Source of the DNA: Eledone cirrhosa
Taxonomy: Eukaryota
Length of the DNA: 64,000 nucleotides
Assembly (NCBI GenBank): GCA_964016885.1
Contig: OZ024759.1
Location: forward strand, 26,846,001 to 26,910,000
Reading direction: 5' to 3'
The notes beneath the pieces were generated by a model. The model did not search any database. It was not told the origin of the DNA and saw only the letters and a program-made list of their open reading frames with translations. Positions 1 to 64,000 of this stretch are shown here, one piece after another. Positions within the stretch are counted from its first letter, which is position 1. Every line of letters begins with the position of its first letter. The position numbers and the translations under genes are program-made.

Positions 1-3000
1 GTAATGTTATCGACATATCTGCCCTTGGGACTAATAATTGTCATGTAATGTTATGGACATCTCTGCCCCTGTGGCTAATAATTCTGTCATGTAATGTTAT
101 GGACATCTCTGCCCCTGTGGCTAATAATTCTGTCATGTAATGTTATGGACATCTCTGCCCCTGTGGTTAATAATTCTGAGAGAGATAAAACAAGTGAGGG
201 ATTAGAGTGTTGAAACAAGAGAGAGAGAGGAAGAGAGAGAGAGAGCGAGATGAAATGAGACAGGGTGAGCGAGATGAAACGCGACAGTGAGAGAAGCGAT
301 ATGAAACGAGAGAGTGAGAGCGAGATGAAACGAGAGAGAGAGCGAGATGAAACGAGACAGAGAGAGCGAGATGTAATGAGAGAGAGAGAGAGAGAGCGGG
401 ATGGAACGAGACAGAGAGGAAACGAGAGAGAGAGGAAACGAGAGTGAGGAAACGAGAGTAGAGAGCGAGATGAAACAGGAGAGAGAGAGCGAGATGAAAC
501 GAGAGGGAGAGAGAGATGAAACGAGGGAGATAGAGATGAAACGAGAGAGAGGAAGAGAGAGATGGAACGAGAGAGAGGAAGACAGAGATGAAACGAGAGA
601 GAGAGAGAGATGAAACGAGAGAGAGAGAGCGCGAGATGAAACGAGAGAAAGAGAGCGCGAGATGAAACGACAGAGAGAGAGAGAGATGAAAGGAGGGAGA
701 TAGAGATGAAACGAGAGAGAGGAAGAGAGAGATGGAACGAGCGAGAGGAAGAGAGAGATGGAACGAGAGAGAGGAAGACAGAGATGAAACGAGAGAGAGC
801 GAGATGAAACGAGAGAGAGAGAGAGAGCGAGATGAAACGAGAGAGAGGAAGAGAGAGAGCGCCAGATGAAACTCTGTCATGTAATGTTATGGACATATCT
901 GCCCTTGGGGCTAATAATTGTCATGTAATGTTATGGACATCTCTGCCCCTGTGGCTAATAATTCTGTCATGTAATGTTATGGACATCTCTGCCCCTGTGG
1001 CTAATAATTCTTTCATGTAATGTTATGGACATCTCGGCCCCTGTGGCTAATAATTCTGACATGTAATGTTATGGACATCTCTGCCCCTGTGGCTAATAAT
1101 TCTGACATGTAATGTTATGGACATCTCTGCCCCTGTGGCTAATAATTCTGTCATGTAATGTTATGGACATCTCTGCCCCTGTGGCTAATAATTCTGCCAT
1201 GTAATGTTATGGACATCTCTGCCCCTGTGGCTAATAATTCTGCCATGTAATGTTATGGACATCTCTGCCCCTGTGGCTAATAATTCTGACATGTAATGTT
1301 ATGGACATCTCTGCCCCTGTGGCTAATAATTCTGAGAGAGATGAAACAAGTGAGGGATTAGAGAGAGATAAAACAAGTGAGGGATTAGAGTGTTGAAACA
1401 AGAGAGAGAGAGGAAGAGAGATAGAGAGCGAGATGAAATGAGACAGGGAGAGCGAGATGAAACACGACAGTGAGAGAAGCGAGATGAAACGAGAGAGTGA
1501 GAGCGAGATGAAACGAGAGAGAGAGAGAGCGAGATGAAACGAGACAGAGAGAGCGAGATGTAATGAGAGAGAGAGAGAGCGGGATGGAACGAGACAGAGA
1601 GGAAACGAGAGAGAGGAAACGAGAGTAGAGAGCGAGATGAAACGAGAGGGAGAGAGAGATGAAACGAGAGAGCGAGAGAGAGATGAAACGAGGGAGATAG
1701 AGATGAAACGAGAGAGAGAAAGAGAGAGATGGAACGAGAGAGAGGAAGAAAGAGATGAAACGAGAGAGAGAGAGAGCGAGATGAAACGAGAGAGAGAGAG
1801 CGCGAGATGAAACGAGAGAGAGAGAGCGCGAGATGAAACGAGAGAGAGAGAGCGCGAGATGAAACGATAGAGAGAGAGACAGATAAAAGGAGGGAGATAG
1901 AGATGAAACGAGAGAGAGGAAGATAGAGATGGAACGAGAGAGAGCAAGAGAGAGATGGAACGAGAGAGAGGAAGACAGAGATGAAACGAGAGAGAGAGAG
2001 AGCGAGATGAAACTCTGTCATGTAATGTTATGGACATATCTGCCCTTGGGGCTAATAATTGTCATGTAATGTTATGGACATCTCTGCCCTGTGGCTAATA
2101 ATTCTGACATGTAATGTTATGGACATCTCTGCCCCTGTGGCTAATAATTCTAAGAGAGATGAAACAAGTGAGGGATTAGAGAGAGATAAAAAAGTGAGGG
2201 ATTAGAGTGTTGAAACAAGAGAGAGAGAGGAAGAGAGAGAGAGAGAGCGAGATGAAATGAGACAGGGAGAGCGAGATGAAACGAGACAGAGAGGAAACGA
2301 GAGAGAGGAGACGAGAGTAGAGAGCGAGATGAAACAGAAGAGAGAGAGCGAGATGAAACGAGAGGGAGAGAGAGATGAAACGAGTGAGCGAGAGAGAGAT
2401 GAAACGAGGGAGATAGAGATGAAACGAGAGAGAGGAAGAGAGAGATGGAACGAGAGAGAGGAAGAGAGAGAGGAAGACAGAGATGAAACGAGAGAGAGAG
2501 AGAGCGAGATGAAATGAGAGAGAGAGTGCGCGAGATGAAACGAGAGAGAGAGAGAGCGCGAGATGAAACGACAGAGAGAGAGACAGATGAAAGGAGGGAG
2601 ATAAAGATGAAACGAGAGAGAGGAAGAGAGAGATGAAACGAGAGAGAGAGCGAGAGGAAACGAGAGAGAGAGAGCGCAAGATGAAACGAGAGAGAGAGAG
2701 CGCGAGATGAAACTCTGTCATGTAATGTTATGGACATATCTGCCTCTGTGGCTAATAATTGTCATGTAATGTTATGGTCATCTCTGCCCCTGTGGCTAAT
2801 AATTCTGTCATGTAATGTTATGGACATCTCTGCCCCTGTGGTTAATAATTCTGACATGTAATGTTATGGTCATCTCTGCGCCTGTGGCTAATAATTCTGA
2901 GAGAGATGAAACAAGTGAGGGATTAGAGTGTTGAAACAAGAGAGAGAGAGCGAGATGAAATGAGAGAGTGTGAGCGAGATGAAACGAGACAGGGAGAGCG

Positions 3001-6000
3001 AGATGAAACGAGAGAGTGAGAGCGAGATGAAACGAGAGAGTGAGAGCGAGATGAAATGAGAGAGAGAGAGCGAGATGAAATGAGAGAGAGAGAGCGAGAT
3101 GAAATGAGAGAGAGAGAGCGAGATGAAACGAGACAGAGAGAGAACGAGATGAAACGAGAGAGTGAGAGCGAGATGAAACGAGAGAGAGAGAGCGAGATGA
3201 AACGGGAGGGAGAGAGAGATGAAACGAGAGAGAGTGGAAACGAGAGTAGAGAGCGAGATGAAACAGGAGAGAGAGAGAGCGAGATGAAACAGGAGAGAGA
3301 GAGCGAGATGAAACGAGAGGGAGAGAGAGATGAAACGAGAGAGCGAGAGAGAGATGAAACGAGGGAGATATAGATGAAACGAGAGAGAGGAAGAGAGAGA
3401 TGGAACTAGAGAGAGGAAGACAGAGATGGAACGAGAGAGAGGAAGACAGAGATGAAACGAGAGAGAGAGAGAGCGAGATGAAACAGGAGAGAGAGAGCGA
3501 GATGAAACGAGAGGGAGAGAGAGATGAAACGAGAGAGCGAGAGAGAGATGAAACAAGGGAGATAGAGATGAAACGAGAGAGAGGAAGAGAGAGATGGAAC
3601 GAGAGAGAGGAAGAGAGAGATGGAACGAGAGAGAGGAAGACAGAGATGAAACGAGAGAGCGAGATGAAACGAGAGAGAGAGAGAGCGAGAAGAAACGAGA
3701 GAGAGGAAGAGAGAGAGCGCCAGATGAAACTCTGTCATGTAATGTTATGGACATATCTGCCCTTGGGGCTAATAACTGTCATGTAATGTTATGGACATCT
3801 CTGCCCCTGTGGCTAATAACTCTGACATGTAATGTTATGGACATCTCTGCCCCTGTGGCTAATAATTCTGAGAGAGATGAAACAAGTGAGGGATTAGAGA
3901 GAGATAAAACAAGTGAGGGATTAGAGTGTTGAAACAAGAGAGAGAGAGAGCGAGATGAAACGCGATAGTGAGAGAAGCGAGATGAAACGAGAGAGTGAGA
4001 GCGAGATGAAACGAGAGAGAGAGAGAGCGAGATGAAACGAGACAGAGAGAGCGAGATGTAATGAGAGAGAGAGAGCGAGCGGGATGGAACGAGACAGAGA
4101 GGAAACGAGAGTAGAGAGCGAGATGAAACGAGAGGGAGAGAGAGATGAAACGAGAGAGCGAGAGAGAGATGAAACGAGGGAGATAGAGATGAAATGAGAG
4201 AGAGGAAGAGAGAGATGGAACGAGAGAGAGGAAGACAGAGATGAAACGAGAGAGAGAGAGAGCGAGATGAAACGAGACAGAGAGAGCGCGAGATGAAACG
4301 AGAGAGAGAGAGCACGAGATGAAACGACAGAGAGAGAGACAGATGAAAGGAGGGAGATAGAGATAAAACGAGAGAGAGGATGAGAGAGATGGAACGAGAG
4401 AGAGGAAGAGAGAGATGGAACGAGAGAGAGGAAGACAGAGATGAAACGAGAGAGAGAGAGAGCAAGATGAAACGAGAGAGAGAGAGCGCGAGATGAAACT
4501 CTATCATGTAATGTTATTGATATATCTGCCCCTGTGGCTAATAATTGTCATGTAATGTTATGGTCATCTCTGCCCCTGTGGCTAATAATTCTGTCATGTA
4601 ATGTTATGGACGTCTCCGCCCCTGTGGCTAATAACTCTGACATGTAATGTTATGGACATCTCTGCCCTGTGGCTAATAATTCTGACATGTAATGTTATGG
4701 ACATCTCTGCCCCTGTGGCTAATAATTCTGAGAGAGATGAAACAAGTGAGGGATTAGAGAGAGATAAAACAAGTGAGGGATTAGAGTGTTGAAACAGGAG
4801 AGAGAGAGCGAGATGAAACGCGATAGTGAGAGAGGCGAGATGAAACGAGAGAGTGAGAGCGAGATGAAACGGGACAGAGAGAGCGAGATGTAATGAGAGA
4901 GAGAGAGAGCGGGATGGAACGAGACAGAGAGGAACGAGAGTAGAGAGCGAGATGAAACGAGAGGGAGAGAGAGATGAAACGAGAGAGCGAGAGAGAGATG
5001 AAACGAGGGAGATAGAGATGAAACGAGAGAGAGGAAGAGAGAGATGGAACGAGAGAGAGGAAGACAGAGATGAAACGAGAGAGAGAGAGAGCGAGATGAA
5101 ACGAGAGAGAGAGAGCGCAAGATGAAACGAGAGAGAGAGAGCGCGAGATGAAACGACAGAGAGAGAGACAGATGAAAGGAGGGAGATAGAGATGAAACGA
5201 GGGAGAGGAAGAGAGAGATGGAACGAGAGAGAGGAAGACAGAGATGAAACGAGAGAGAGAGCGAGATGAAACGAGAGAGAGGAAGAGAGAGAGCGCGAGA
5301 TGAAACTCTCTCATGTAATGTTATCGACATATCTGCCCTTGGGGCTAATAATTGTCATGTAATGTTATGGACATCTCTGCCCCTATGGCTAATAATTCTA
5401 TCATGTAATGTTATGGACATCTCTGCCCCTGTGGCTAATAATTCTGTCATGTAATGTTATGGACATCTCTGCCCCTGTGGCTAATAATTCTGCCATGTAA
5501 TGTTATGGACATCTCTGCCCCTGTGGCTAATAATTCTGCCATGTAATGTTATGGACATCTCTGCCCTGTGGCTAATAATTCTGACATGTAATGTTATGGA
5601 CATCTCTGCCCCTGTGGCTAATAATTCTGAGAGAGATGAACCAAGTGAGGGATTAGAGAGAGATAAAACAAGTGAGGGATTAGAGTGTTGAAACAAGAGA
5701 GAGAGAGGAAGAGAGAGAGAGAGCGAGATGAAACAAGAGAGTGAGAGAAGCGAGATGAAACGAGAGAGTGAGAGCAAGATCAAACGAGAAAGAGAGAGAG
5801 CGAGATGAAACGAGACAGAGAGGAAACGAGAGAGAGAGGAAATGAGAGAGAGGAAACGAGAGTAGAGAGCGAGATGAAACAGGAGAGAGAGAGCGAGAAG
5901 AAACGAGCGGGAGAGAGAGATGAAACGAGAGAGCGAGAGAGAGATGAAACGAGGGAGATAGAGATGAAACGAGAGAGAGGAAGAGAGAGATGGAACGAGA

Positions 6001-7803
6001 GAGAGGAAGACAGAGATGAAACGAGAGAGAGAGAGAGATAAAACGAGACAGAGAGAGCGCGAGATGAAACGAGAGAGAGAGAGCGCGAGATGAAACGACA
6101 GAGAGAGAGACAGATGAAAGGAGGGAGATAGAGATGAAACGAGAGAGAGGATGAGAGAGATGGAACGAGAGAGAGGAAGAGAGAGATGGAACGAGAGAGA
6201 GGAAGACAGAGATGAAACGAGAGAGAGAGCAAGATGAAACGAGAGAGAGAGAGCGCAAGATGAAACGAGAGAGAGAGAGCGCGAGATGAAACTCTGTCAT
6301 GTAATGTTATTGACATATCTGTCCCTGTGGCTAATAATTGTCATGTAATGTTATGGTCATCTCTGCCCCTGTGGCTAATAATTCTGTCATGTAATGTTAT
6401 GGACATCTCTGCCCTTGTGGCTAATAATTCTGAGATATATTAAACAAGTGAGGGATTAGAGTGTTGAAACAAGAGAGAGAGAGCGAGAAAAAATGAGAGA
6501 GTGAGAGCGGGATGAAACGAGAGAGGGAGAGCGAGATGAAACGAGAGAGAGAGAGCTAGATGAAATGAGAGAGAGAGAGCGAGATGAAACGGGAGGGAGA
6601 GAGAGATGAAACGAGAGAGAGAGGAAACGAGAGTAGAGAGCGAGATGAAACAAGAGAGAGAGCGAGATGAAACAGGAGAGAGAGAGCGAGATGAAACGAG
6701 AGGGAGAGAGAGATGAAACGAGAGAGCGAGAGAGAGATGAAACAAAGGAGATAGAGATGAAACGAGAGAGAGGAAGAGAGAGATGGAACGAGAGAGAGGA
6801 AGAGAGAGATGGCACGAGAGAGAGGAAGACAGAGATGAAACGAGAGAGAGAGAGCGAGATGAAACGAGAGAGAGAGAGCGCGACATGAAACGAGAGAGAG
6901 AGAGCGTTAGATGAAACGACAGAGAGCGAGACAGATGAAAGAAGGGAGATAGAGATGAAACGGGAGAGAGGAAGAGAGAGATGGAACGAGAGAGAGGAAG
7001 AGAGAGATGGAACGAGAGAGAGGAAGACAGGGATGAAACGAGAGAGAGAGAGAGCGAGATGAAACGAGAGAGAGAGAGCGCAAGATGAAACGAGAGAGAG
7101 AGCGCGGGAGATGAAACGACAGAGAGAGAGACAGATGAAAGGAGGGAGATAGAGATGAAACGAGAGAGAGGATGAGAGAGATGGAACGAGAGAGAGGAAG
7201 AGTGAGATGGAACGAGAGAGAGAGAGAGCAAGATGAAACGAGAGAGAGAGAGAGAGAGAGAGCGCAAGATGAAACGAGAGAGAGAGAGCGCGAGATGAAA
7301 CGACAGAGAGAGAGACAGATGAAAGAACGGAGATAGAGATGAAACGAGAGAGAGGAGGAAAGAGATGGAACGAGAGAGAGGAAGAGAGAGATGGAACGAG
7401 AGAGAGGAAGACAGAGATGAAACGAGAGAGAGAGAGAGCGAGATGAAACGAGAGAGAGGAAGACAGAGATGAAACGAGAGAGAGGGAGAGCGAGATGAAA
7501 CGAGAGAGAGAGCGCGCAAGATGAAACTCTGTCATGTAATGTTATTGACATATCTGCCCCTGTGGCTAATAATTGTCATGTAATGTTATGGTCATCTCTG
7601 CCCCTGTGGCTAATAATTCTGTCATGTAATGTTATGGACATCTCTGCCCCTGTGGCTAATAATTCTGACATGTAATGTTATGGACATCTCTGCCCTTGTG
7701 GCTAATAAATCTGACATGTAATGTTATGGAAATCTCTGCCCCTGTGGCTAATAATTCTGTCATGTAATGTTATGGAAATCTCTGCCCCTGTGGCTAATAA
7801 ATC
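1..7803 (+). repeat. Higher-order satellite, left arm: 46-bp monomer clusters alternating with 8 GA-rich blocks
   Basis: Monomer ctgtcatgtaatgttatggacatctctgcccctgtggctaataatt (period 46, e.g. 61 to 107). GA blocks at about 178-873, 1334-2014, 2151-2714, 2899-3731, 3870-4500, 4730-5307, 5629-6293 and 6432-7528, built of gatgaaac(ga)n. Confidence 0.97.
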
Positions 7804-7804
7804 A

Positions 7805-10800
7805 GAATTATTAGCCACAGGGGCAGAGATGTCCATAACATTACATGTCAGAATTATTAGCCACAGGGGCAGAGATGTCCATAACATTACATGACAGATT
7901 TATTAGCCACAGGGGCAGAGATGTCCATAACATTACATGCCAGAATTATTAGCCACAGGGGCAGAGATGTCCATAACATTACATGACAGATTTATTAGCC
8001 ACAGGGGCAGAGATGTCCATAACATTACATGTCAGATTTATTAGCCACAGGGGCAGAGATGTCCATAACATTACATGTCAAAATTATTAGCCACAGGGGC
8101 AGAGATGTCCATAACATTACATGACAGATTTATTAGCCACAGGGGCAGAGATGTCCATAACATTACATGACAGAATTATTAGCCACAGGGGCAGAGATGT
8201 CCATAACATTACATGACAGAATTATTAGCCACAGGGGCAGAGATTTCCATAACATTACATGACAATTATTAGCCCCAAGGGCAGATATGTCCATAACATT
8301 ACATGACAGACTTTCATCTCGCGCTCTCTCTCTCTCGTTTCATCTCACGCTCTCTCTCTTCCTCTCTCTCGTTTCATCTTGCTCTCTCTCTCTCTCGTTT
8401 CATCTCGCGTTCTCTCTCTTCCTCTCTCTCGTTTCATCTCGCTCTCTCTCTCGTTTCATCTCTGTCTTCCTCTCTCTCGTTCCATCTCTCTCTTCCTCTC
8501 TCTCGTTCCATCTCTCTCTTCCTCTCTCTCGTTTCATCTCTCTCTCTCGTTTCATCTGTCTCTCTCTCTGTCGTTTCATCTCCCTCTATCTCTCTCTCGC
8601 TCTCTCGTTTCATCTCTCTCTCCCTCTCGTTTCATCTCGCTCTCTCTCTCCTGTTTCATCTCGCTCTCTCTCTCCTGTTTCATCTCGCTCTCTACTCTCG
8701 TTTCCTCTCTCTCGTATCCTCTCTCTCGTTACCTCTCTCTCTCGTTTCCTCTCTCTCTCGTTTCCTCTAGCTCTCACTCTCTCGTTTCATCTAGCTCTCT
8801 CTCTCTCATTTCATCTCGCTCTCTCTCTCTCGTTTCATCTCGCTCTAATCTGTCTCGTTTCATTTCGCTCTCTCTCTCTCTCGTTTCATTTCGCTCTCTC
8901 TGTCTCGTTTCATCTCGCTCTCTCTCTCTCATTTCAACTCGCTCTCTCTCTCTCATTTCATCTCGCTCTCTCTCTCTCGTTTCATATCGCTCTCACTCTC
9001 TCATTTCATCTCGCTCTCTCTCTCTCGTTTGATCTCGCTCTCACTCTCTCTTCCTCTCTCTCTCTTGTTTCAACACTCTAATCCCTCACTTGTTTCATCT
9101 CTCTCTTATCCCTCACTTGTTTCATCTCTCTCAGAATTATTAGCCACAGGGGCAGAGATATCCATAACATTACATGTCAGAATTATTAGCCACAGGGGCA
9201 GAGATGTCCATAACATTACATAACAGATTTATTAGCCACAGGGGCGGAGATGTCCATAACATTACATGACGAATTTATTAGCCACAGGGGCAGAGATGTC
9301 CATAACATTACATGACAGAATTATTAGCCACAGAGGCAGAGATGTCCATAACATTACATGACAGAATTATTTGCCACAGGGGCAGAGATGTACATAACAT
9401 TACATGACAATTATTAGCCCCAAGGGCAGATATGTCCATAACATTACATGACAATTATTAGCCCCAAGGGCAGATATGTCCATAACATTACATGACAGAC
9501 TTTCATCTCGCGCTCTCTCTCTTCCTCTCTCTCGTTTCATCTCGCTCTCTCTCTCTCGTTTCATCTCGCTCTCTTTCTCTCTCGTTTCATCTCGCGCTCT
9601 CTCTCTTCCTCTCTCTCGTTTCATCTCGCTCTCTCTCTCGTTTCATATCTGTCTTCCTCTCTTTCGTTCCATCTCTCTATTCCTCTCTCTCTCGTTTCAT
9701 CTAGCTATCACTCTCTCGTTTCATCTCCCTCTATCTCTCTCTCGCTCTCTCGTTTCATCTCTCCCTCCCTCTCATTTCATCTCGCTCTCTCTCTCCGGTT
9801 TCATCTCGCTCTCTCTCTCTCCTGTTTCATCTTGCTCTCTACTCTCGTTTCCTCTCTCTCGTTTCCTCTCTCTCGTTTCCTCTATCTCTCGTTTCCTCTC
9901 TCTCTCGTTTCATCTAGCTCTCACTCTCTCGTTTCATCTCGCTCTCTCTGACTCGTTCCATCTCGCTCTCACTCTCTCGTTTCATCTCGCTCTCTCTCTC
10001 TCATTTCATCTCGCTCTCTCTCTCTCATTTCATCTCGATCTCTCTGTCTCGTTTCATCCCGCTCTCTCTGTCTCGTTTCATCTCGCTCTCTCTCTCTCAT
10101 TTCATCTCGCTCTCTCTCTCTCATTTCATCTCGCTCTCTCTCTCTCTCTCGTTTCATCTCACTCTCAATCTCTCATTTCATCTCGCTCTCTCTCTCTCAT
10201 TTCATCTCGCGCTCTCTCTCTTCCTCTCTCTCGTTTCATCTCGCGCTCTCTCTCTTCCTCTCTCTCGTTTCATCTCGCTCTCTCTCTCTCGTTTCATCTT
10301 GCGCTCTCTCTCTTCCTCTCTCTCGTTTCATCTCGCGCTCTCTCTCTTCCTCTCTCTCGTTTCATCTTGCTCTCTCCCTCTCTCGTTTCATCTCGCGTTC
10401 TCTCTCTTCCTCTCTCTCGTTTCATCTCTGTCTTCCTCTCTCTCGTTCCATCTCTCTCTTCCTCTCTCTCGTTCCATCTCTCTCTTCCTCTCTCTCGTTT
10501 CATCTCTCTCTCTCGTTTCATCTCTATCTCCCTCGTTTCATCTGTCTCTCTCTCTGTCGTTTCATCTCCCTCTATCTCTCTCTCGCTCTCTCGTTTCATC
10601 TCTCTCTCCCTCTCGTTTCATCTCACTCTCTCTCTCCTGTTTCATCTCGCTCTCTCTCTCCTGTTTCATCTCGCTCTCTACTCTCGTTTCCTCTCTCTCG
10701 TATCCTCTCTCTCGTTTCCTCTCTCTCTCGTTTCCTCTCTCTCTCGTTTCCTCTAGCTCTCACTCTCTCGTTTCATCTCGCTCTCTCTCTCTCATTTCAT

Positions 10801-13800
10801 CTCGCTCTCTCTCTCTCGTTTCATATCGCTCTAATCTGTCTCGTTTCATTTCGCTCTCTCTCTCTCTCTCTCTCGTTTCATTTCGCTCTCTCTGTCTCGT
10901 TTCATCTCGCTCTCTCTCTCTCATTTCAACTCGCTCTCTCTCTCTCATTTCATCTCGCTCTCTCTCTCTCGTTTCATATCGCTCTCACTCTCTCATTTCA
11001 TCTCGCTCTCTCTCTCTCGTTTGATCTCGCTCTCACTCTCTCTTCCTCTCTCTCTCTTGTTTCAACACTCTAATCCCTCACTTGTTTCATCTCTCTCTTA
11101 TCCCTCACTTGTTTCATCTCTCTCAGAATTATTAGCCACAGGGGCAGAGATATCCATAACATTACATGTCAGAATTATTAGCCACAGGGGCAGAGATGTC
11201 CATAACATTACATGACAGATTTATTAGCCACAGGGGCGGAGATGTCCATAACATTACATGACGAATTTATTAGCCACAGGGGCAGAGATGTCCATAACAT
11301 TACATGACAGAATTATTAGCCACAGGGGCAGAGATGTCCATAACATTACATGACAGAATTATTTGCCACAGGGGCAGAGATGTACATAACATTACATGAC
11401 AATTATTAGCCCCAAGGGCAGATATGTCCATAACATTACATGACAATTATTAGCCCCAAGGGCAGATATGTCCATAACATTACATGACAGACTTTCATCT
11501 CGCGCTCTCTCTCTTCCTCTCTCTCGTTTCATCTCGCTCTCTCTCTCTCGTTTCATCTCGCTCTCTCTCTCTCTCGTTTCATCTCGCGCTCTCTCTCTTC
11601 CTCTCTCTCGTTTCATCTCGCTCTCTCTCTCTCTCGTTTCATATCTCTCTTCCTCTCTCTCGTTCCATCTCTCTATTCCTCTCTCTCTCGTTTCATCTAG
11701 CTATCACTCTCTCGTTTCATCTCCCTCTATCTCTCTCTCGCTCTCACGTTTCATCTCTCCCTCCCTCTCATTTCATCTCGCTCTCTCTCTCCGGTTTCAT
11801 CTCGCTCTCTCTCTCTCCTGTTTCATCTTGCTCTCTACTCTCGTTTCCTCTCTCTTGTTTCCTCTCTCTCGTTTCCTCTCTCTCTCGTTTCCTCTCTCTC
11901 TCGTTTCATCTAGCTCTCACTCTCTCGTTTCATCTCGCTCTCTCTGACTCGTTCCATCTCGCTCTCACTCTCTCGTTTCATCTCGCTCTCTCTCTCTCAT
12001 TTCATCTCGCTCTCTCTCATTTCATCTCGATCTCTCTGTCTCGTTTCATCCCGCTCTCTCTGTCTCGTTTCATCTCGCTCTCTCTCTCTCATTTCATCTC
12101 GCTCTCTCTCTCTCTCATTTCATCTCGCTCTCTCTCTCTCTCTCGTTTCATCTCACTCTCAATCTCTCATTTCATCTCGCTCTCTCTCTCTCATTTCATC
12201 TCGCGCTCTCTCTCTTCCTCTCTCTCGTTTCATCTCGCGCTCTCTCTCTTCCTCTCTCTCGTTTCATCTCGCTCTCTCTCTCTCGTTTCATCTTGCGCTC
12301 TCTCTCTTCCTCTCTCTCGTTTCATCTCGCTCTCTCTCTCTCATTTCATCTCGATCTCTCTGTCTCGTTTCATCCCGCTCTCTCTGTCTCGTTTCATCTC
12401 GCTCTCTCTCTCTCATTTCATCTCGCTCTCTCTCTCTCATTTCATCTCGCGCTCTCTCTCTTCCTCTCTCTCGTTTCATCTCGCGCTCTCTCTCTTCCTC
12501 TCTCTCGTTTCATCTCGCTCTCTCTCTCTCTCTCGTTTCATCTTGCGCTCTCTCTCTTCCTCTCTCTCGTTTCATCTCGATCTCTCTCTGTCTCGTTTCA
12601 TCTCTGTCTTCCTCTCGCTCGTTCCATCTCTCTCTTCCTCTCTGTCGTTCCATCTCTCTCTTCCTCTCTCTCGTTTCATCTCTCTCTCTCGTTTCATCTC
12701 TGTCTTCCTCTCTCTCGTTCCATCTCCCTCTTCCTCTCTCTCGTTCCATCTCTCTCTTCCTCTCTCTCGTTTCATCTCTCTCTCTCGTTTCATCTCTATC
12801 TCCCGCGTTTCTACTGTCTCTCTCTCTGTCGTTTCATCTCCCTCTATCTCTCTCTCGCTCTCTCGTTTCATCTCTCTCTCCCTCTCGTTTCATCTCGCTC
12901 TCTCTCTCCTGTTTCATCTCGCTCTCTCTCTCCTGTTTCATCTCGCTCTCTACTCTCGTTTCCTCTCTCTCGTTTCCTCTCTCTCGTTTCCTCTCTCTCT
13001 CGTTTCATCTAGCTCTCCCACTCTCGTTTCATCTCGCTCTCTCTGTCTCGTTCCATCTCGCTCTCACTCTCTCGTTTCATCTCGCTCTCTCTCTCTCATT
13101 TCATCTCGCTCTCTCTCTCTCATTTCATCTCGCTCGCTCTCTCTCTCTCGTTTCATCTCGCTCTCTCTGTCTCGTTTCATCTCGCTCTCGCTCTCTCTGT
13201 CTCGTTTCATCCCGCTCTCTCTCTCTCATTTCATCTCGCTCTCTCTCTCTCATTTCATCTCGCTCTCTCTCTCTCTCTCGTTTCATCTCGCTCTCACTCT
13301 CTCATTTCATCTCGCTCTCTCTCGTTTGATTTCGCTCTCTCTCTTCCTCTCTCTCTCTCTTGTTTCAACACTCTAATCCCTCACTTGTTTCATCTCTCTC
13401 AGAATTATTAGCCACAGGGGCAGAGATGTCCATAACATTACATGTCAGAATTATTAGCCACAGGGGCAGAGATGTCCATAACATTACATGACAGATTTAT
13501 TAGCCACAGGGGCAGAGATGTCCATAACATTACATGACGAATTTATTAGCCACAGGGGCAGAGATGTCCATAACATTACATGTCAGAATTATTAGCTACA
13601 GGGGCAGAGATGTCCATAACATTACATGTCAGAATTATTAGCCACAGGGGCAGAGATGTCCATATCATTACATGACAGATTTATTAGCCACAGGGGCAGA
13701 GATGTCCGTAACATTAAATGACAGATTTATTAGCCACAGGGGCAGAGATTCCATAAGATTACATGTCAGAATTATTAGCCACAGGGGCAGAGATTTCCAT

Positions 13801-14799: not shown

Positions 14800-14860
<61 letters not shown>

Positions 14861-15205
14861 ATCCCCTCTCTCTTTCTCTCCCCTCTCTCTGTTGTTTCAT
14901 CCCTCACCCTCTTGTTTCATCCCCTTCTCTCCCTCTCTCTCTCTTCCCCTCTATCTCTATTCCTCTCTCTCATCCCCTCTCTCTCTCTTCCTCTCTCTCT
15001 CTCTCCCCTCACCCTCTTGTTTCAACTCTCTCCTCGTTTCAACTCTCTCCTCGTTTCAACTCTCTCCTCGTTTCAACTCTCTCCTCGTTTCAACTCTCTC
15101 TCTCTCCTCTCGTTTCAACTCTCTCTCTCTCCTCGTGTTTCAACCATCTCCTCTCTTGTTTCAACTCTCTCACCTCTCGTTTCAACTCTCTCTCTCTGTG
15201 TCTCC
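7805..15205 (-). repeat. Higher-order satellite, right arm (reverse orientation), 4 CT-rich blocks
   Basis: Reverse-complement monomer aattattagccacaggggcagagatgtccataacattacatgacag. CT blocks at about 8310-9133, 9499-11125, 11491-13401 and 13940-15205. Confidence 0.97.
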
Positions 15206-18986: not shown

Positions 18987-19007
18987 ACCCTGAGAGACTG
19001 AGAAATC

Positions 19008-52500: not shown

Positions 52501-52840
52501 TATGCCAGACATAGTGAGTTCGAATCTGACTGATTAGTTGGTCATTGTCCCAGCCAACAGTTTAAATCGCCAACCAGTAGGTGACATCGACTAGGTTGGG
52601 AAAACTTGGTTAAGTAGCTCCAGTTATTGCTACGTTAGACATATTCAAGACTTATCGACACCGAATGGAAGAAAGGTAAAGTTGAACTCAGAGTAAAGAA
52701 CAGGAAAAATACTGCAAAGAATTCTATCTGATGTTCTAACAATTCTACCAAATTACCTTATGTATATATATTTATATCTAGAGATAAGAAGAAAACTGAA
52801 AGAAAGAAAAGAAAAAAAATGAGACCTTATATGTAACCCA

Positions 52841-53905
52841 TGTTACAACTCAATATATATATATTTGGGTTGTAACATATTCCCGCCGGTGAAATAAAAA
52901 TTTTAATAGAAAAACGGCGGGAATATATGTTACAACCCAATCTATATATATTTGAGTTGTAACATATATTCCCGCCGTTGAAATAAAAATTTTAATAGAA
53001 AAACGGCGGGAATATATGTTACAATCCAATCTAGATATATTTGGGTTGTAACATATATTCCCGCCGTTGAAATAAAAATTTTAATAGAAAACCGGCGGGA
53101 ATATATGTTACAACCCAATCTATATATATTTGGGATGTAACATATATTCCCGCCGTTGAAATAAAAATTTTAATAGAAAAACGGCGGGAATATATGTTGC
53201 AACCCAATCTACATATATTTGGGTTGTAACATATATTCCCGCCGTTGAAATAAAAATTTTAATAGAAATACGGCGGGAATATATGTTACAACCCAAACTA
53301 TATATGTTTGGGTTGTAACATATATTCCCGCCGTTTTTCTATTAAAATTTTTATTTCAACGGCGGAAATATATGTTACAACCCAAATATATGTAGATTGG
53401 GTTGCAACATATATTCCCGCCGTTTTTCTATTAAAATTTTTATTTCAACGGCGGGAATATATGTTACAATCCAAATATATATAGATTGGGTTGTAACATA
53501 TATTCCCGCCGTTTTTCTATTAAAATTTTTATTTCAACGGCGGGAATATATGTTGCAACCCAAATATTTATAGATAGGGTTGTAACATATATTCCCGCCG
53601 TTTTTCTATTAAAATTTTTATTTCGACGGCGGGAATATGTTACAACCCAAATATATATAGATTGGGTTGTAACATATATTCCCGCCGTTTTTCTATTAAA
53701 ATTTTTATTTCAACGGCGGGAATATATGTTACAACTCAAATATATATAGATTGGGTTGTAACATATATTCCCGCCGTTTTTCTATTAAAATATTTATTTC
53801 AACGGCGGGAATATATGTTACAACCCAAAAATATGTAGATTGGGTTGTAACATATATTCTCGCCGTTTTTCTATTAAAATTTTTATTTCACCGGCGGGAA
53901 TATAT
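52841..53905. repeat. 89-bp double-hairpin satellite in unit 2, ~12 units, inverted internally
   Basis: Same monomer; 5 forward loops then 7 reverse loops, switching at about 53270-53330. Confidence 0.95.
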
Positions 53906-54279
53906 ACCCTGAGAGACTGAGAAATCTCTTTCAAAGAGATTTCTCAGTCTCTCAGGGTATATTTGCAATGGTGGCAACACAACCTTTCCTTTTTTACAAC
54001 AGTTACAATTTTCATTTCTAAATTTCAAAGCTCCACAGTGATCACACGAAACATTCATATCACTAATATGAAATTCTTCTACATTTCCATTAATATTAAT
54101 TGTTGGCCAATTTCTCTTACGACGCTCATTATCGATTCTTCTCTGTCTGAATGTTTTCCATTCTAAGTCTATTTGCATGGAATAATTATATTCTGTTGTT
54201 TATTATGTAATTAAATAGCTCTGTACAATACATAGAGCATTCTTCTTTTCTTTACCTTTTCTATGGAAATACAAGAACA

Positions 54280-54344
<65 letters not shown>

Positions 54345-57300
54345 ATATACATAAACAAGACTGTTATTGCTCCAACCAGTCTATTTATCTTTGATAACTA
54401 TCCTAGATATAAATACACCTATACCATACATACATATATCATATATGTTTTTGATGCCGTGGTATAGCAGAGATAAGCAAGAAGAGAAAAGAAAATGAAA
54501 AGGAGAAAAAAAAAGAAGTAAGAAGTCGGGGGAGGGACAGACACTTCACCCCAGTCTAAGTGGTCCCTCAGCCGCAACCTGTGGAAGAAACGTAAAAGCG
54601 TTACCTCAGAGCAAGGCCAGAGACACCTGCAACAATAGTCGCCCCTCCTCATGAGGCTCCTGTCGTCTTTCCTCCCGACTTTATGAAGGAAATCAGCAGT
54701 ACAGGGACCAAGTATGGCAGAGGTCTCAATGGAGTGGAAGAGGTGAGTCAGGCCTTGGTACTATCTTACTATCCTCTGCATTGCGGGGTGTGGAGCCTAG
54801 GTTTGTGGCTGTAGCTATATTTGAACTTTTATATGAAATTTCAGTTTTATTTTTTTCACATCATAAAACTTAATCTTAGTCTTTTGCAGCTCATCTTGTT
54901 TCATCTCGCAGCACACGATTTGGGAACCACTGCTCTAGAGATAGAAAAAGTATATTTTATGCAGGACTTCCCTGAGACATAAAAACTATTTCCAGAGATC
55001 GACATGGGTAGAAAGGTTGAGAAATGCTGCACAATGTTCTTTGGTTTTTGTTCACCTTTAAATAATCATGTATAAAATATCGGGTGTGCAAGATTTCATG
55101 AAAAGGTATAACATTATTTATGCTGATCTTGCAGGGACTAGCTCCAATTGAGAGTTGTACCAATTCCCACTAAACTCGAAACTCCTGGACAATATATACA
55201 TATCTTTATAAGTTCCTGTGTATTGTGTCGTTGTATAATGAAACATAAATACATACCATGCATGTCAGTCAGATTTGAACTCACTATATTTGGCGTTTTA
55301 TAGATATAATTTGTTTGTTAAAACAATTGATTAAATAATAACTAAATAAAATTAATTCTACAATCCTGGATAGGGAATGAACTTATAACTTCATAATAGA
55401 AGCCATCTATTCGAGCAGTATTGCCATCTAAGCCACCAGGTTACTTACAGAACTTCATTCAAATATAAAATATAAAATATATGCCAGACATAGTGAGTTC
55501 GAATCTGACTGATTAATTGGTCATTGTCCCAGCCAACAGTTTAAATCGCCAACCAGTAGGTGACATCGACTAGGTTGGGAAAACTTGGTTAAGCAGCTCC
55601 AGTTATTGCTACGTTAGACATATTCAAGACTTATCGACACCGAATGGAAGAAAGGTAAAGTTGAACTCAGAGTAAAGAACTGGAAAAATACTGCAAAGAA
55701 TTCTATCTGATGTTCTAACAATTCTACCAAATTACCTTATGTATATATATTTATATCTAGAGATAAGAAGAAAACTGAAAGAAAGAAAAATGAGACCTTA
55801 TATGTAACCCATGACCAGGATTGAAACCGAAACCATGACTACCACCATCTCTGGTATCACCCACCAGACCACCATGAAAGATACAAACATCTGCTTTTTT
55901 AATATTTATAAGCCTACTTTCAATATTAAAGTAATTAACATGTGGTGTTGTTCATGCCTTTCTCTATGTTATTGGTAAAAAATAAAGTATTTAAACCTCA
56001 AATTTTGTTATTCAAATATGCTTGCTTATGTAATTATAAATGTCGCAGAATACACACACATATATAGATGTGAAAATATTCAGGACCCCAACGGCTGTGC
56101 TACTGCCGTTTCGACATCTATATATATATCTTTTAGTCCTAGGCTCTTTCAGCGCAGAAAGAATTCTCCAATGATCACAACCAGCTAATGGTGCCCAGTG
56201 GAAGCACTTTAGTCTAATTATAACCCCAACGATCACGATTAGCGGCGGCTTTTTCGAGTCTGAGGTTGACTGCCAGATATATATATATATCTATATATAT
56301 ATATATATATTTTTTTATACTTTGCTAGAATCCCGGAGAACAACAGAAAGATGCTGAGTTCAGAGTTTAAAAAACATGTCCCCCTTTAATATAAAAACAA
56401 TCCGAGTCTTGTAAAAGTGTTATTACTGTAATATAAAGTAGAAACCCTTTATTTAAACAAAGCTGAGATGCAGCGATCATCAAAGCAAACCCCAAAATGT
56501 AAACAAACTTCTCGCAGGTGCTGGCAGATACACGATAACATGTGTATACGAAGTGTAACAGGGAGTTGGGTCGTATTATATGACTTTCAAATTGACCCCT
56601 ATTATATTCAAATTATCCCCTGTGGGGCGTGCACCCCACGTTGAGAATCCCTCATAAATAAATATATGTGAGTGTGTTGCTATGACTGCTATTTCTAGCA
56701 GGTTTACTGCAGTCCTGTAGACGCACAACAAAAACCGGAAGTGGCAGCCATTAAAAAACTTTGGCTTAAAATCAGGCAAAAGTTTTTTAACAATTTGCCA
56801 AGAAAGATAACTCTTGTCTTACTTAATCGCAAAAATCGAGGCAAAAAATTTTGCGGGTGTGCAGTTTGTTTGGTGTATTTGACTGCTATTTCTAGCATAT
56901 ATGGACACTTTAGAAATAGCAGCGAAACACGGGAAACATAAGAAAGAAGGACACACACGTATATATATATACATATATATATGCACAGATATATACATTT
57001 AAATATATATATTTATATATACATACACGCGCGCACACACACCTATACGTAGATATGGGTGTGTGTATAGCTGGTATATATATATATATGTATGGGTGAG
57101 TGTATAGCTGGTATATATATATATATATATATAGGTGTGTGTCCTTCTTTCTGCTGTTTTCCGTTTTTCGCTGCTATTTCTAAAGTGTCCATACATGCTA
57201 GAAATAGCAGTCATAGCAACACACTCACATATATTTATTTATGAGGGATTCTCAACGTGGGGTGCACGCCCCACAGGGGATAATTTGAATATCCCCCTCT

Positions 57301-59727
57301 TTATATCAATTAGCACTAACTCTCTCCCTCTCTATATCTACTACACGGCACTCTCTTCCAATACCCCTCTCTATATGAAGTAACACCAAACTCTCCCCCT
57401 CTCTATATATTAAGCACTAAGTCAGGAATTTTTTTCTTCTTTCGTGCAGAGAGAGTAAAGTTGATTAAATCTACTGCAGTGAATTACTGGTATTTTATTT
57501 AATAAAAATTAAAATTTACTATTTGTCTTCGTTTAATTTTCGTTTTTCTTTACATAGTTTCGTTTCGTTAAATGTCTCCAGAATTTGTTTTTACTTTTAC
57601 CGGATATTGAAGGTGTAAACTTGGTGTTGTCTAGAAACGTGTTAGAAATATTTTTCTTTTAATTGTGAAGAATTTAACCGCAAAGTAAGTTTTTTTTACT
57701 GTTTATTTGTGGCTGGGACAACGTATGGTATGTGTTAATGTAAATGGTGAAGGTTTAAAGATTCTTTTTACAACTGAAAATCAGTTTGTTGTTGCTGCTA
57801 ATTACTTAACGCATGGAATAGATTAAAAAAATACAGGATTGTTTCTCGGAAGAGAGAAAGAAGAAACAACAAATCACAGAAGCGGGTAGCACACACATTT
57901 GGGACCACATACAACACAAAAACAGGTAATCCACACATCTGGGACCACATACAACACACCAGCAGGTAATACATACATCTAGGACCACATAAGCAGGTAA
58001 TACACACATCTAGGACCACATACAACACACAAGCAGGTAATACACACATCTAGGACGACATACAACCAAAGGCAGGCGAAAGGGGTGGACAAACGAGCTG
58101 CTACTAGATCAAAAGATAACAGTATCGCGAGGAGCACTGGGAAACCTCTCTAATGATTTTTTTAGGCAAGCCAGCACGTCTGCAGCGTTACCTCGGGCGA
58201 TGGCGAGGCTGAGGAGCTGGAACAACCAAGTGCCCTCACGAGCTTCACCAGTCACCTTCGTCAGGCTAGCCGCCAGTGAAGATAGGAATCTCGCAGTCAG
58301 TATCCCGACTCCCCCAAACGCCACAGGCTGGAAAATGTAGTTGGCCGACAGATCACAGTATTACTTAACAGTGATAGATATTCTGTCTAAAGGAGGGGCG
58401 TACAACAGGCGGCCCGCGGGCCACAGTCGAGCCCACCTGACCAGTCAGAGTGGCCCGCAATGACTCTTGTAGGCTTATTTAGAATTTTTTCCATACCCGT
58501 AATACTTCTGTTAGTTGACCTATACTAAAGGACTTCACTGATAGGGTTATATGTGTTATAATTTCCCAGTTGACCTATACTAAAGGACTTCACTGATAGG
58601 GTTATATGTGTTATAGTTTCCCAGTTGACCTATACTAAAGGACTTCACTGATAGGGTTATATGTGTTATAGTTTCCCAGTTGACCTATACTAAAGGACTT
58701 CACTGATAGGGTTATATGTGTTATAATTTCCCAGTTGACCTATACTAAAGGACTTCACTGATAGGGTTATATGTGTTATAGTTTCCCAGTTGACCTATAC
58801 TAAAGGGCTTCACTGATAGAGTTATATGTGTTATAGTTTCCCAGAGGGCTTCACTGATAGGGTTATATGTGTTATAGTTTCCCAGTTGACCTATACTAAA
58901 GGACTTCACTGATAGGGTTATATGTGTTATAGTTTCCCAGTTGACCTATACTAAAGGACTTCACTGATAGGGTTATATGTGTTATAGTTTCCCAGTTGAC
59001 CTATACTAAAGGACTTCACTGATAGGGTTATATGTGTTATAGTTTCCCAGTTGACCTATACTAAAGGACTTCACTGATAGGGTTATATGTGTTATAGTTT
59101 CCCAGTTGACCTATACTAAAGGGCTTCACTGATAGAGTTATATGTGTTATAGTTTGAAACAAACTACCCGCATCAGTTATTATACTTTTATAACACCGCT
59201 ATATTACCTACATGAAAGAGGTAAATATTTATTTCTCTTGTCTTCTTAAATGTATAGAACATTTTTCTTATATATATTCTTAACATAGCTAGGACCGTTT
59301 ATTATTTACTAGTCTCTACTCCTAGGACTTTGCTGGTCTCATGTCCCCTCCATCAACACACACTCGGTAGAAAGCTGGTCGTCGGAGGTAAAGTGGCCCT
59401 GATTACAGGTCTAGTATTGAAGCCTTTCGGCTTGAGCCTTGCTGATGCCGACAGAGTTCCTGTGGTAGTTTTGGTAGCACAGGTGACATTTTATTGTGTT
59501 TAGGTACCGGCTAGTGCGGACACAGAGAGCACAACCAGGTGGTGAGCTGGCAACGACCAAGTGTAGAGGGCCAGCTTTGAAATTCGAGCGACGGAGTGAA
59601 CTAGTAAAAGAGGCAGGGTAAGCAGCATTGGTTCTAACGGTGGGACTAGAACGGAGGTTGGGTGGTGCTGGGGGTGGGCTAACAGCTAACAGTTGTAGGA
59701 GTGGTGGGGGTTTGCTAGGATTAATTT

Positions 59728-62079
59728 TTACATCTGTATGTGAACTCTTGAAAAAGCAACATACAATTGTCCAGGGTTAAATACTTGCTCAGGGAGGAAC
59801 AGACCCACTTTATCATGTATTTGACCATGGTTCTTGTTGATTGTCATGGCATATGACAGTCTTAATGGAAACTGGGGTCTTTCCAAAGTAAAAAGGATGT
59901 TGGCACCACTGGGGGCTAACTTCAGTCTTGGGATCAAAACACACCTGCCCATCAAAGGACCATAGATATGAGAAGCTTTGATAAAATGTTTATGCAGTTC
60001 TACTACTTCTAATCTTGTGCCATTACATAATCTGTTCTGGATTGAAATATTCCATAGAAGCATTAGTATTGATCCTGCTTTTAATTGGAGTTTGTGAGGC
60101 GGCATCCCAGAAGGTGTAAGCAAGTTCATTTAGCTTGAACCAGGCAGCAAGGGTCCCTGCATTTCTACCACAACCTGAGCATTGCCTCTTTGAAAGTAAA
60201 CTCTGTTTGTTCTCCAGGTGTGTGGCTAGGCTGTATAATGTATGTGATGTACCATGAAGCTTAAATTCGGAGAGACACGACACTGCTTCTGGCTGAGACA
60301 CATACCTGCAACAAAGATAGGTTCTTATTTCATCATGGTTGTGTTGGTTCTGAGCCTCATTAGGTAATGCATTATTCGTTACTTCTATAGATGTACAATC
60401 ATGCCCCATGTAACATATTTAAAGAGGTACTTGACACTTTTTACAGAAGCGCAAACTTCAACATTAATATGTGCACAATATTTCTTAAGCAAAAAGGCAT
60501 TAAATGGCACAACATTCCTGTTATCTACTGAATGTCATCCAATTTACACTGCAGTTCCTGTCTTGCACCTCCTGTACTCTGGGTATCCATTTAGGTTCAA
60601 TAATGTTTCCCTTCTGTAGGTTTTTGGATAGTTCTTTTGGAAAAATCCATTTTGTATAAATGGGGGAAAAGGGTTTCCAGAACCACATGGCCCGTGGATC
60701 ATAAACTTTTAAACCTGCTCATATAGTACTTGATCATCTTCCAATGCAGGTATTTCTGCTGACACGATTCTGTCAATGTCTTCTCTGTTTCTTATCTTGT
60801 CTTCATTTCTTAAGGCTCAGTGTTATCATCTGTTTAGATAATTCATTAAACCATTATACTCATCCACTCACAATTGGGCTTGATTGTTCCTCAAATATTG
60901 AAGCCTGCATCCCTCTACTTTCATATAGGCTTCCACTAAATACTGCTAAAATAATTTACCTGCCCTATATATCGCACTAAATCCTCCTCTATATGCTATA
61001 CTGTATATGTAATACTCCTGCATTGTCAGTCTATTGCAAACACAGGTCCTGCATTCCTCTCCATGTCACTATGCCACCAAAATTCACCATTATGGGTCGG
61101 TCATGAGGTCCAAGTGGCATGAATTATGTGATATTTTCTGAGGAGGATGGTCTTTAGGAAAGATGATAATATCTCTTTGTACAGGTGGTCTGCCCTCAAT
61201 CCCCCACAAAACAACAGCTATCATTACTAGTTGGTAAATTATAGCAGCTCATATCTGATCCTCTTCTAAATCTTAATTCACAGTTCTGTACACGACAATG
61301 TTCTCTTCTTGCACTTTGCTGTTTGATGCCATGCATTGTATTGTACAATTCACATATGGATTACATTCATGCAACACCTCTCTTATCATAGCCATTTTTT
61401 GTGGTGAGCACTCATTATTTGTTGGTACTAGGGCGGTGGATTGGCAGTATCGGTAGAGCGTCAGACACCATGCTTTGCAGCATAGGGTTATGGCCCTTTA
61501 CGTTCTGGGTTCAAATCCCTCCAAGGTTGACTTTGTTTTCATCCTTATGAGGTCGATAGAATAAAGTACCAGTAATTGCTGGCCTTGTGCCAGAAACAAT
61601 TATTTGGTCGTACTTCCAATCTGTGCTACACACCTTCGTTCCCATCAATAATATATAACTGGCCATATTGTGGTGTATTTTCTGCAGGTTACAGAGGTGA
61701 GGGTGTAGTGATATGTTTGACCGTGAATATGAAAGCTATACGGGCCTCTGCCGGGTGGTAACACCAAATGAAGTGAAATAAATGTAGTTTTAATTGCAGA
61801 CGTTTCTGTGAAATCAACTGCTTCCTGGCCTCTTTCAAAGAGATTTCTCAGTCTCTCGGGGTATATTTGCAATGGTGGCAACACAGCCTTTACTTTATTA
61901 CAACAGTTATTTTCATTTCTAAATTTCAAAGCTTCACAGTGATCACACGAAACATTCATATCACTAATATGAAATTCTTCTAGATTTCCATTAATATTAA
62001 TTGTTGGCCAATTTCTCTTATGACGCTCATTATCCATTCTTCTCTGTCTGAATGTTTTCCATTCTAAGTCTATTTGCAT
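59728..62079 (-). pseudogene. Degenerate Helitron Rep/Pif1-helicase gene, unit 2 copy
   Basis: Near-identical to 26376-28727 (offset 33352) with the same lesions. Confidence 0.95.
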
Positions 62080-62180
62080 GGAATAATTATATTCTGTTGT
62101 TTATTATGTAATTAAATAGCTCTGTACGATACATAGAGCATTCTTCTTTTCTTTACCTTTTCTATAGAAATACAAGAACA

Positions 62181-62222
<42 letters not shown>

Positions 62223-62270
62223 TGTATATATGTGTGTATATACATAAACAAGACTGTTATTACTCCAACC

Positions 62271-64000
62271 AGATGAAACTCTGTCATGTAATGTTATCGA
62301 CATATCTGCCCTTGGGGCTAATAATTGTCATGTAATGTTATGGACATCTCTGCCCCTGTGGCTAATAATTCTGTCATGTAATGTTATGGACATCTCTGCC
62401 CCTGTGGCTAATAATTCTGTCATGTAATGTTATGGACATCTCTGCCCCTGTGGTTAATAATTCTGAGAGAGATAAAACAAGTGAGGGATTAGAGTGTTGA
62501 AACAAGAGAGAGAGAGGAAGAGAGAGAGAGAGCGAGATGAAATGAGACAGGGAGAGCGAGATGAAACGCGAGAGTGAGAGAAGCGATATGAAACGAGAGA
62601 GTGAGAGCGAGATGAAACGAGAGAGAGAGAGAGCGAGATGAAACAAGACAGAGAGAGCGAGATGTAATGAGAGAGAGAGAGAGAGCGGGATGGAACGAGA
62701 CAGAGAGGAAACGAGAGAGAGAGGAAACGAGAGTAGAGAGCGAGATGAAACAGGAGAGAGAGAGCGAGATGAAACGAGAGGGAGAGAGAGATGAAACGAG
62801 GGAGATAGAGATGAAACGAGAGAGAGGAAGAGAGAGATGGAACGAGAGAGAGGAAGACAGAGATGAAACGAGAGAGAGAGAGAGATGAAACGAGAGAGAG
62901 AGAGCGCGAGATGAAACGAGAGAGAGAGAGAGCGCGAGATGAAACGACAGAGAGAGAGAGAGATGAAAGGAGGGAGATAGAGATGAAACGAGAGAGAGGA
63001 AGAGAGAGATGGAACGAGCGAGAGGAAGAGAGAGATGGAACGAGAGAGAGGAAGACAGAGATGAAACGAGAGAGAGCGAGATGAAACGAGAGAGAGAGAG
63101 AGCGAGATGAAACGAGAGAGAGGAAGAGAGAGAGCGCCAGATGAAACTCTGTCATGTAATGTTATGGACATATCTGCCCTTGGGGCTAATAATTGTCATG
63201 TAATGTTATGGACATCTCTGCCCCTGTGGCTAATAATTCTGTCATGTAATGTTATGGACATCTCGGCCCCTGTGGGTAATAATTCTGACATGTAATGTTA
63301 TGGACATCTCTGCCCCTGTGGCTAATAATTCTGACATGTAATGTTATGGACATCTCTGCCCCTGTGGCTAATAATTCTGTCATGTAATGTTATGGACATC
63401 TCTGCCCCTGTGGCTAATAATTCTGCCATGTAATGTTATGGACATCTCTGCCCCTGTGGCTAATAATTCTGCCATGTAATGTTATGGACATCTCTGCCTC
63501 TGTGGCTAATAATTCTGTCATGTAATGTTATGGACATCTCTGCCCCTGTGGCTAATAATTTTGTCATGTAATGTTATGGACATCTCTGCCCCTGTGGCTA
63601 ATAATTTTGTCATGTAATGTTATGGACATCTCTGCCCCTGTGGCTAATAATTTTGTCATGTAATGTTATGGACATCTCTGCCCCTGTGGCTAATAATTCT
63701 GACATGTAATGTTATGGACATCTCTGCCCTGTGGCTAATAATTCTGACATGTAATGTTATGGACATCTCTGCCCCTGTGGCTAATAATTCTAAGAGAGAT
63801 GAAACAAGTGAGGGATTAGAGAGAGATAAAAAAGTGAGGGATTAGAGTGTTGAAACAAGAGAGAGAGAGGAAGAGAGAGAGAGAGAGCGAGATGAAATGA
63901 GACAGGGAGAGCGAGATGAAACGAGACAGAGAGGAAACGAGAGAGAGGAGACGAGAGTAGAGAGCGAGATGAAACAGAAGAGAGAGAGCGAGATGAAACG
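62271..64000. repeat. Start of macro-repeat unit 3 (left satellite arm)
   Basis: Same junction ccaaccag|at(g/a)aaactctgtc as at 28936, followed by the first GA block and 46-mer clusters. Confidence 0.95.

Follow-up and report, generated by a model that had tools for sequence, protein, structure and literature searches.

Arrays that multiply satellite DNA and the remains of transposable elements (TEs) as one unit have been described before. Human composites are tandem units of at least three repeats, attributed to unequal crossing over (bioRxiv 10.1101/2021.07.12.451456); among them, ACRO_Comp has a unit of about 6 kb with TE fragments, a 147-bp satellite and an array inversion (PMC2588610). 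Typical macrosatellite monomers are given as a few kilobases (PMC8122249), and the Helitron tandem arrays of Xenopus as 121–1,996 nt (PMC12001565). The subject here is a 64,000-bp stretch of Eledone cirrhosa (GCA_964016885.1, contig OZ024759.1, positions 26,846,001–26,910,000; hereafter the window), which holds three starts of a tandem unit built from a compound satellite and a spacer containing a dead Helitron. The repeat is genuine, a composite megasatellite whose unit is unusually large and contains three fold-back joints; it appears to work like the known composites and shares their structural definition.

Like ACRO_Comp, TELO_Comp and the MaLR long terminal repeat arrays of human, for which unequal crossing over is credited, the locus joins TE relics to satellite blocks of variable monomer number. 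TEs, simple repeats and satellites, that is at least three repeat types, occur in each unit, and the multi-kilobase units run head to tail with 99.5% identity over 26,853 aligned bases. Unlike the human composites, whose units are given as 3–12 kb, the unit here reaches 29–33 kb, more than half of it is satellite, every unit has an inversion inside it, and a Helitron is carried as passenger. There is also a likeness to Meloidogyne holo-units (PMC13404089) and Hydractinia (PMC11934779), where satellite is interleaved with Helitron-derived DNA and amplified with it; their spacers, however, are reported as non-autonomous Helitrons (in Meloidogyne mainly of 1.5–3.5 kb) at centromeric or subtelomeric sites, whereas the spacer here is a mixed TE graveyard of 13–14 kb. 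A literature search found neither a description of this unit, which may be catalogued in supplements or repeat libraries, nor satellites of such a kind described for octopods.

Self-alignment of the window bears out the giant tandem unit that an earlier note, made from the sequence alone, had proposed: positions 1–12202 align to 28952–41188 and 1–1334 to 62288–63609, giving three starts and unit lengths of 28,951 and 33,336 bp. The composition that it described also holds, each unit consisting of a strand-flipping satellite of 15–20 kb (15.2 and 20.6 kb) and a segment of TE relics with a Helitron pseudogene. The exact joints lie at 28936/28937 and 62272/62273. The window itself starts just 15 bp beyond a unit junction, and a contig may end at this joint.

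We consider it probable, at about 0.72, that the three units go back to a single microhomology join and were multiplied by recombination between copies, with the Helitron as a dead passenger. The unit joint looks like an ordinary block joint of the satellite in which Helitron upstream DNA stands instead of the GA side. The letters CCAG are shared with the block joints at 869 and 3727, and only AG with the block at 5303, which has the same first-monomer variant; the chance of such microhomology is 0.4% for 4 nt and 6% for 2 nt. All four paralogous Helitron fragments run collinearly through and past the joint position.

The pseudogene is a Helitron Rep/Pif1 relic, as the earlier note had it: read through with X at the stops, it matches Pfam Helitron_like_N (E 4.5e-7) and Pif1_2B (E 1.5e-10). 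Among 1,881 candidate proteins 352 match it, the best being P0001 (E 1.5e-179), which has the canonical RepHel domains Helitron_like_N, PIF1 and Pif1_2B; an Octopus bimaculoides Pif1 fragment among 32 hits is only 60% identical. Like canonical Helitrons and Helraiser (PMC4778049), it descends from a canonical RepHel; unlike them, its HUH and Walker A motifs are deleted, a 3′ hairpin with CTAG is absent, and the unit joint is not CTAG|TC. Both motifs are needed for transposition (PMC4778049); in P0001 they lie at aa 622 and aa 1102, inside the relic's deletions, and a search of the HUH and helicase-core regions of P0001 against the whole window gave no match. The relic lacks the set of features of an autonomous Helitron (HUH, Y2 tyrosines, Walker A and an open frame); the tyrosine motif region is kept, with a frameshift nearby, and the natural 3′ end is missing where a PHD-like relic replaces the C-terminus. 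Near 28076–28235 the relic has taken up an insertion resembling a short interspersed nuclear element (SINE). Each of the 11 stops in its five matched stretches recurs in unit 2 at its unit 1 position, and the two units also share both large deletions; because these lesions are shared, the relic was dead before the unit was amplified. The earlier note's single pseudogene needs correction, since each unit has two more partial Helitron pieces, H2 and H3, besides this relic (H1). When DNA of intact family members was sought, metagenome contigs gave a single remote locus and viral contigs gave nothing.

At the joint of a Helitron circle, 11 nt downstream of a hairpin, CTAG meets TC (PMC4778049), and the Helitron left end is TA-rich (PMC12001565). 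At the unit joints we found no hairpin with CTRR|TC, in keeping with the earlier note's failure to locate canonical TC...CTAG termini; of the four hairpin and CTRR candidates in 15198–28951, not one lies at the joint or has TC after it, and no CTRR-TC site of unit 1 falls at the joint. A 5′ TC terminus with a TA-rich left terminal sequence (LTS) is likewise absent from the unit start, which is not TA-rich. The TC-like letters are there because the satellite's own block joint supplies them. Of 23 TC and TATA hits in the unit, none is diagnostic of a surviving LTS, though a 5′ terminus may lie elsewhere in the unit. The whole unit fails every Helitron terminus test that could be run. The giant non-autonomous Helitron cassette suggested in the earlier note is not supported, given the missing hairpin and CTRR|TC, a joint inside collinear paralog sequence and a relic that died before amplification.

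One Helitron-driven origin deserves separate weighing, namely that an intact RepHel, acting in trans, amplified the unit as a 3′ read-through product whose 5′ end is at or near the joint and which had captured about 27–31 kb of DNA downstream. Seen from the start of the unit on the minus strand, the Helitron does point inward; it has lost its 3′ end, and the joint reads A|TC on that strand; diverged family copies in the sequencing runs X4 and X6 continue past the relic's deletion points. The literature adds that right-end loss raises read-through, that the Helraiser left end alone suffices and that CTTG, CTAC or AATG can terminate the element where no palindrome is present (PMC4778049), that maize Helitrons reach 39 kb (PMC6431247), and that Helitron-linked satellite arrays are known in Meloidogyne (PMC13404089). 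We nevertheless regard this origin as very unlikely: the hairpin and CTRR|TC are absent at the joint, the T of TC comes from the satellite and none of the four paralogous fragments, all running on upstream, has it, the 23 TC and TATA hits do not include the joint, and a mere 224 bp, about 80 of which are AT microsatellite, separate the joint from the codon that corresponds to P0001 aa 141. We give equally little credence to the fuller scenario in which a terminator-less Helitron and an intact relative acting in trans rolled out 30-kb circles with a giant satellite palindrome, and so produced a megabase-scale satellite domain. If true, no larger Helitron-driven satellite unit would be known from any animal; only if the read-through case proves true would the locus reveal a new mechanism.

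The compound satellite consists of blocks of 3–14 copies of a 46-bp monomer, alternating with 0.5–2 kb of GA-rich 24–26-bp repeats. Unit 1 has nine forward and four reverse 46-mer blocks (82 monomers) and unit 2 nine and seven (108 monomers), and the GC/AT skew changes sign near 7.8 kb and 36.9 kb, respectively. The tail-to-tail flip of unit 1 has a predicted fold of −299.5 kcal/mol (z −48), a hairpin that any inverted satellite would give. Among the 10 GA blocks recovered from unit 1, substitution averages 3.9% over 21 pairs inside the forward arm, 2.0% over 3 pairs inside the reverse arm and 5.6% over 21 pairs taken from opposite arms, whereas corresponding GA blocks of units 1 and 2 differ by 0–1%. 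The satellite had been called self-inverted; the strand flip stands, but the divergence between arms, higher than within them, rules out the reverse arm as a mirror-image copy of the forward arm, the two having been homogenised separately. Because the arms are 5.6% apart and matching blocks of the units only 0–1%, the inversion would be older than the large unit. Homogenisation seems to have acted mainly among satellite blocks of the same orientation. At 15.0–15.2 kb the satellite passes through a degenerate 17-bp repeat that grades into spacer and looks like an old natural edge, while the edge at 28937 is sharp. The 46-mer matched nothing in genome and viral contigs.

In an anchored alignment units 1 and 2 differ by 129 substitutions in 26,853 columns (0.48%) and by 53 indels, at similar rates in the forward arm (0.46%), the reverse arm (0.40%) and the spacer (0.54%). 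The divergence ranking runs from 0.48% between units through 1.1–1.2% between H3 and H2 and 2.7% between H2 and H1 to 5.6% between satellite arms; unit duplication thus came last, since its value is lower than those of the internal duplicates and the arms. Of 25 indels of 10 bp or more, 15 are whole monomers of the 24-, 26-, 46- or 89-bp arrays. Unit 2 has gained 5,449 bp as three added blocks, 95–99% like their neighbours, and has lost 1,684 bp between 386-bp direct repeats; unit 3 has lost one GA block between two 46-mer runs. Substitutions are spread unevenly along the unit (4/3256, 23/1768, 30/6427 and 64/14869), with Fisher p 5e-6 for the H3 stretch under boundaries picked after seeing the data and with the 89-bp array (8/533) left out. 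These monomer indels, the direct-repeat loss and the patchy identity fit exchange or conversion among many copies and are silent on the origin of the first copies; together with the microhomology joint they favour the macrosatellite and unequal crossing-over alternative that the earlier note had also offered. The H3 stretch itself (18987–20761 against 53906–55813) differs by 1.3% between units, about three times the rest, with 12 and 11 private changes, and is possibly a conversion tract or derived from a donor of another array lineage.

From the observed anatomy, lesions, divergences, junction sequence and multi-copy depth we infer mechanisms and, beyond the divergence ranking, an order of events. 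A Helitron would have inserted and then decayed until its HUH and 3′ end were gone and little of the helicase remained. Local duplication of its 5′ part would have followed (2.7%, then 1.2% divergence), and the neighbouring compound satellite would have gained its inversion, the arms then being homogenised separately. The first tandem pair may next have arisen when a microhomology-mediated break or template switch fused Helitron upstream DNA with a block joint of the satellite. From there the number would have grown to roughly tens to about 100 copies through unequal exchange, gene conversion or break-induced replication, with monomers still added and removed, a step that the three fold-back joints per unit, predicted to be fragile, may feed. 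If the octopod calibration (Jukes–Cantor distance 0.09 equal to 25 million years; PMC13282606) applies, the relic would be near 25 and the unit split near 1 million years old, as rough values.

Amplification might instead have run through an extrachromosomal circle of non-Helitron kind: cut out at the microhomology joint, perhaps once a palindrome had broken, it would have been copied by rolling circle and reinserted. This is a proposed route for satellites (PMC8122249), and the single precise novel joint and the fold-back joints would suit it; the many monomer-level indels and patchy substitutions between units mean that any burst has since been reworked by recombination, and we hold this route to be quite unlikely.

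Part of 24000–28900 is present in 10 of 14 listed sequencing runs, from six studies, and four runs were aligned to 25810–29000; one of them, X1, may be the assembly's own source. X1 yields five relic-specific contigs (0–3 differences) at a word depth of 665–1049, some of which cross the HUH deletion and the helicase/PHD fusion, and two diverged family contigs at depths of 12.1 and 6.8, so that the relic stands at 70–120 times their depth. With 6.8–20 taken as single-copy depth, the estimate is about 40–120 copies, or 1–4 Mb, an uncalibrated figure in which word depth is not copy number. The unit is multi-copy, with an apparent number of roughly tens to about 100, and no false duplication. Summed 46-mer depth in X1 is about 100–110 times that of the relic, against 82–108 monomers per unit expected from the window; satellite and relic therefore appear to have been amplified together. 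The ratio is lower in X4 (about 26) and X6 (about 13), which have other organism labels and also span relic-specific joints; with 851 and 489 records, these may represent close relatives or trace DNA and were left out of dating. Records diverged by about 10% (X4 record 12 and X6 record 19) break off at the deletion points, the behaviour expected of family members without the deletions. None of the runs with matches was listed as RNA, which has no bearing on expression.

These depths also bear on the idea that the tandem order is an assembly artefact, with haplotypes or collapsed copies set in tandem. A divergence of 0.5% is inside the allelic range, the window starts almost exactly on a unit joint, each unit has a long palindrome, and the junction was not seen spanned in the 24 of 49,679 pieces shown. 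Yet the first 860 bp or so come in three distinct versions (4, 5 and 1 pairwise substitutions plus indels), the small indels lie mostly in microsatellites and not in homopolymers, unit 2 agrees with the reads at each of the five listed sites that set unit 1 apart from both, and the relic exceeds the diverged family contigs of X1 by the factor given above; an artefact is highly improbable, though the exact local unit order may be simplified in the assembly. Over 25810–28000, units 1 and 2 share several alleles absent from the dominant type of X1 (about 3 in 1,090 bp), which agrees with a greater likeness of neighbouring copies. The 17 of 22 checked sites at which both units differ from most reads had raised the possibility of fixed differences between species, which is countered by mixed alleles in the raw reads of X12 and by paralog overlap at several sites.

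Several observations weigh against the preferred account of one microhomology join followed by recombination between copies. Patchy identity and monomer slippage could overlie any first amplification mechanism. The minus-strand joint is an A followed by TC, and the unit starts just upstream of the Helitron open reading frame (ORF), an arrangement that 3′ read-through would give; had the ancestor of the paralogs lost 1 bp, a 5′ end at the joint would be rescued. The single-copy baseline was assumed from two contigs, and depth is not copy number. Depth ratios give about 12 block-first monomers against 14–21 expected and about 1 junction-type variant against 2 expected, and no record spanning the junction is among the 24 of 49,679 pieces shown.

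It is also conceivable, though unlikely, that the array is a maintained functional domain, a centromeric or subtelomeric higher-order repeat, rather than neutral heterochromatin. By depth ratio it likely contains most of the 46-bp satellite of sample S1, and satellites rich in dyads as well as centromere units linked to Helitrons have been described (PMC8122249, PMC13404089). On the other side, an estimated total of about 1–4 Mb would seem small for the centromeres of a many-chromosome set, and neither an RNA gene nor an intact ORF was found: Rfam gave 77 matches in 15100–29000, all under the gathering score and on hairpins or microsatellites, and ARAGORN found no tRNA in the window.

As a clean and datable case of the formation of a composite satellite of about 30 kb, with nested layers at about 10%, 5.6%, 2.7%, 1.2% and 0.5% divergence, the locus warns that Helitron remnants in satellite arrays are not evidence of rolling-circle spread. 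Since the array appears to contain most of one satellite family of its genome, it offers a ready probe for fluorescence in situ hybridization and CENP-A work.

Table 1. Features of the window, grouped as units, satellite, Helitron relic and other spacer elements.
Feature	Position	Strand	Remarks
Unit 1	1..28936	.	First 15 bp outside window
Unit 2	28937..62272	.	33,336 bp; against unit 1, 0.48% substitutions, +5.4 kb satellite, without a 1,684-bp stretch
Unit 3, start only	62273..64000	.	Second GA block absent; two 46-mer blocks fused, ~14 monomers
Unit junction, first copy	28933..28940	.	2–4 nt microhomology (up to CCAG), Helitron upstream DNA with satellite block joint
Unit junction, second copy	62269..62276	.	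Same joint
Satellite, unit 1	1..15197	flips	15.2 kb
Forward arm, unit 1	1..7802	+	9 blocks of 46-bp monomers alternating with GA-rich 24–26-bp repeats
Tail-to-tail flip, unit 1	7520..8090	.	~270-bp arms, 7-nt loop
Reverse arm, unit 1	7803..15197	-	4 blocks
Satellite, unit 2	28937..~49581	flips	20.6 kb
Forward arm, unit 2	28937..36915	+	9 blocks
Reverse arm, unit 2	36916..49581	-	7 blocks; internal duplications 95–99% alike
Helitron RepHel relic H1, unit 1	26382..28712	-	P0001 aa 141–512, 633–867, 1367–1498
Helitron relic, unit 2 copy	59734..62064	-	Deletions and stops identical to unit 1 copy
Partial Helitron copy H2	16124..18456	-	N-terminal coding 16116–16868 and upstream DNA; 2.7% from H1
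Partial Helitron copy H3 and upstream DNA	19007..20761	-	~1.2% from H2
SINE-like repeat	15395..15519	+	77% to copy inside Helitron relic
89-bp hairpin-rich array flipping mid-way	18454..18986	.	3+3 monomers; unit 2 copy 5+7 at 52840–53905
Near-perfect 61-bp fold-back of Helitron sequence	18983..19043	.	Caps H3; adjoins 89-bp palindromic array; array and fold-back together 18454–19043, in unit 2 52840–53960
Nested inverted-repeat elements resembling miniature inverted-repeat TEs (MITEs)	21307..23944	.	386-bp direct repeats flank 1,684 bp absent from unit 2
55-bp minisatellite	25161..25803	+	11.9 copies
PHD-finger-like relic	26062..26367	-	Fused at expected place of Helitron C-terminus and 3′ end

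The SINE, hAT and MITE labels for spacer elements are presumed ones. The PHD-like identification is weak (Pfam E 0.03, Atlas 0.90, P0154 E 9e-4, and nothing in one further search); 47 molecules in X12 end at 26374 and a contig of depth 4340 in X1 departs at 26014, which suggests a separate dispersed repeat. A hAT-like end at 19833–19850, duplicated near 17530, has 17 of 18 letters in common with the start of a GA satellite block; derivation of the GA satellite from it was not accepted, 0, 3 and 2 of 60 shuffles having matched the score. Six-frame Pfam search of 24000–25160 gave no informative family and one weak match. On the plus strand, 23950–24345 has four short CT-rich repeats, then an AT-rich leader and then a splice-donor-like site, and may be where another element has its 5′ end. 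In the duplicated Helitron upstream region (17900–18150 and 20210–20460), two inverted repeats with about 240 bp between them hint at a small element with terminal inverted repeats.

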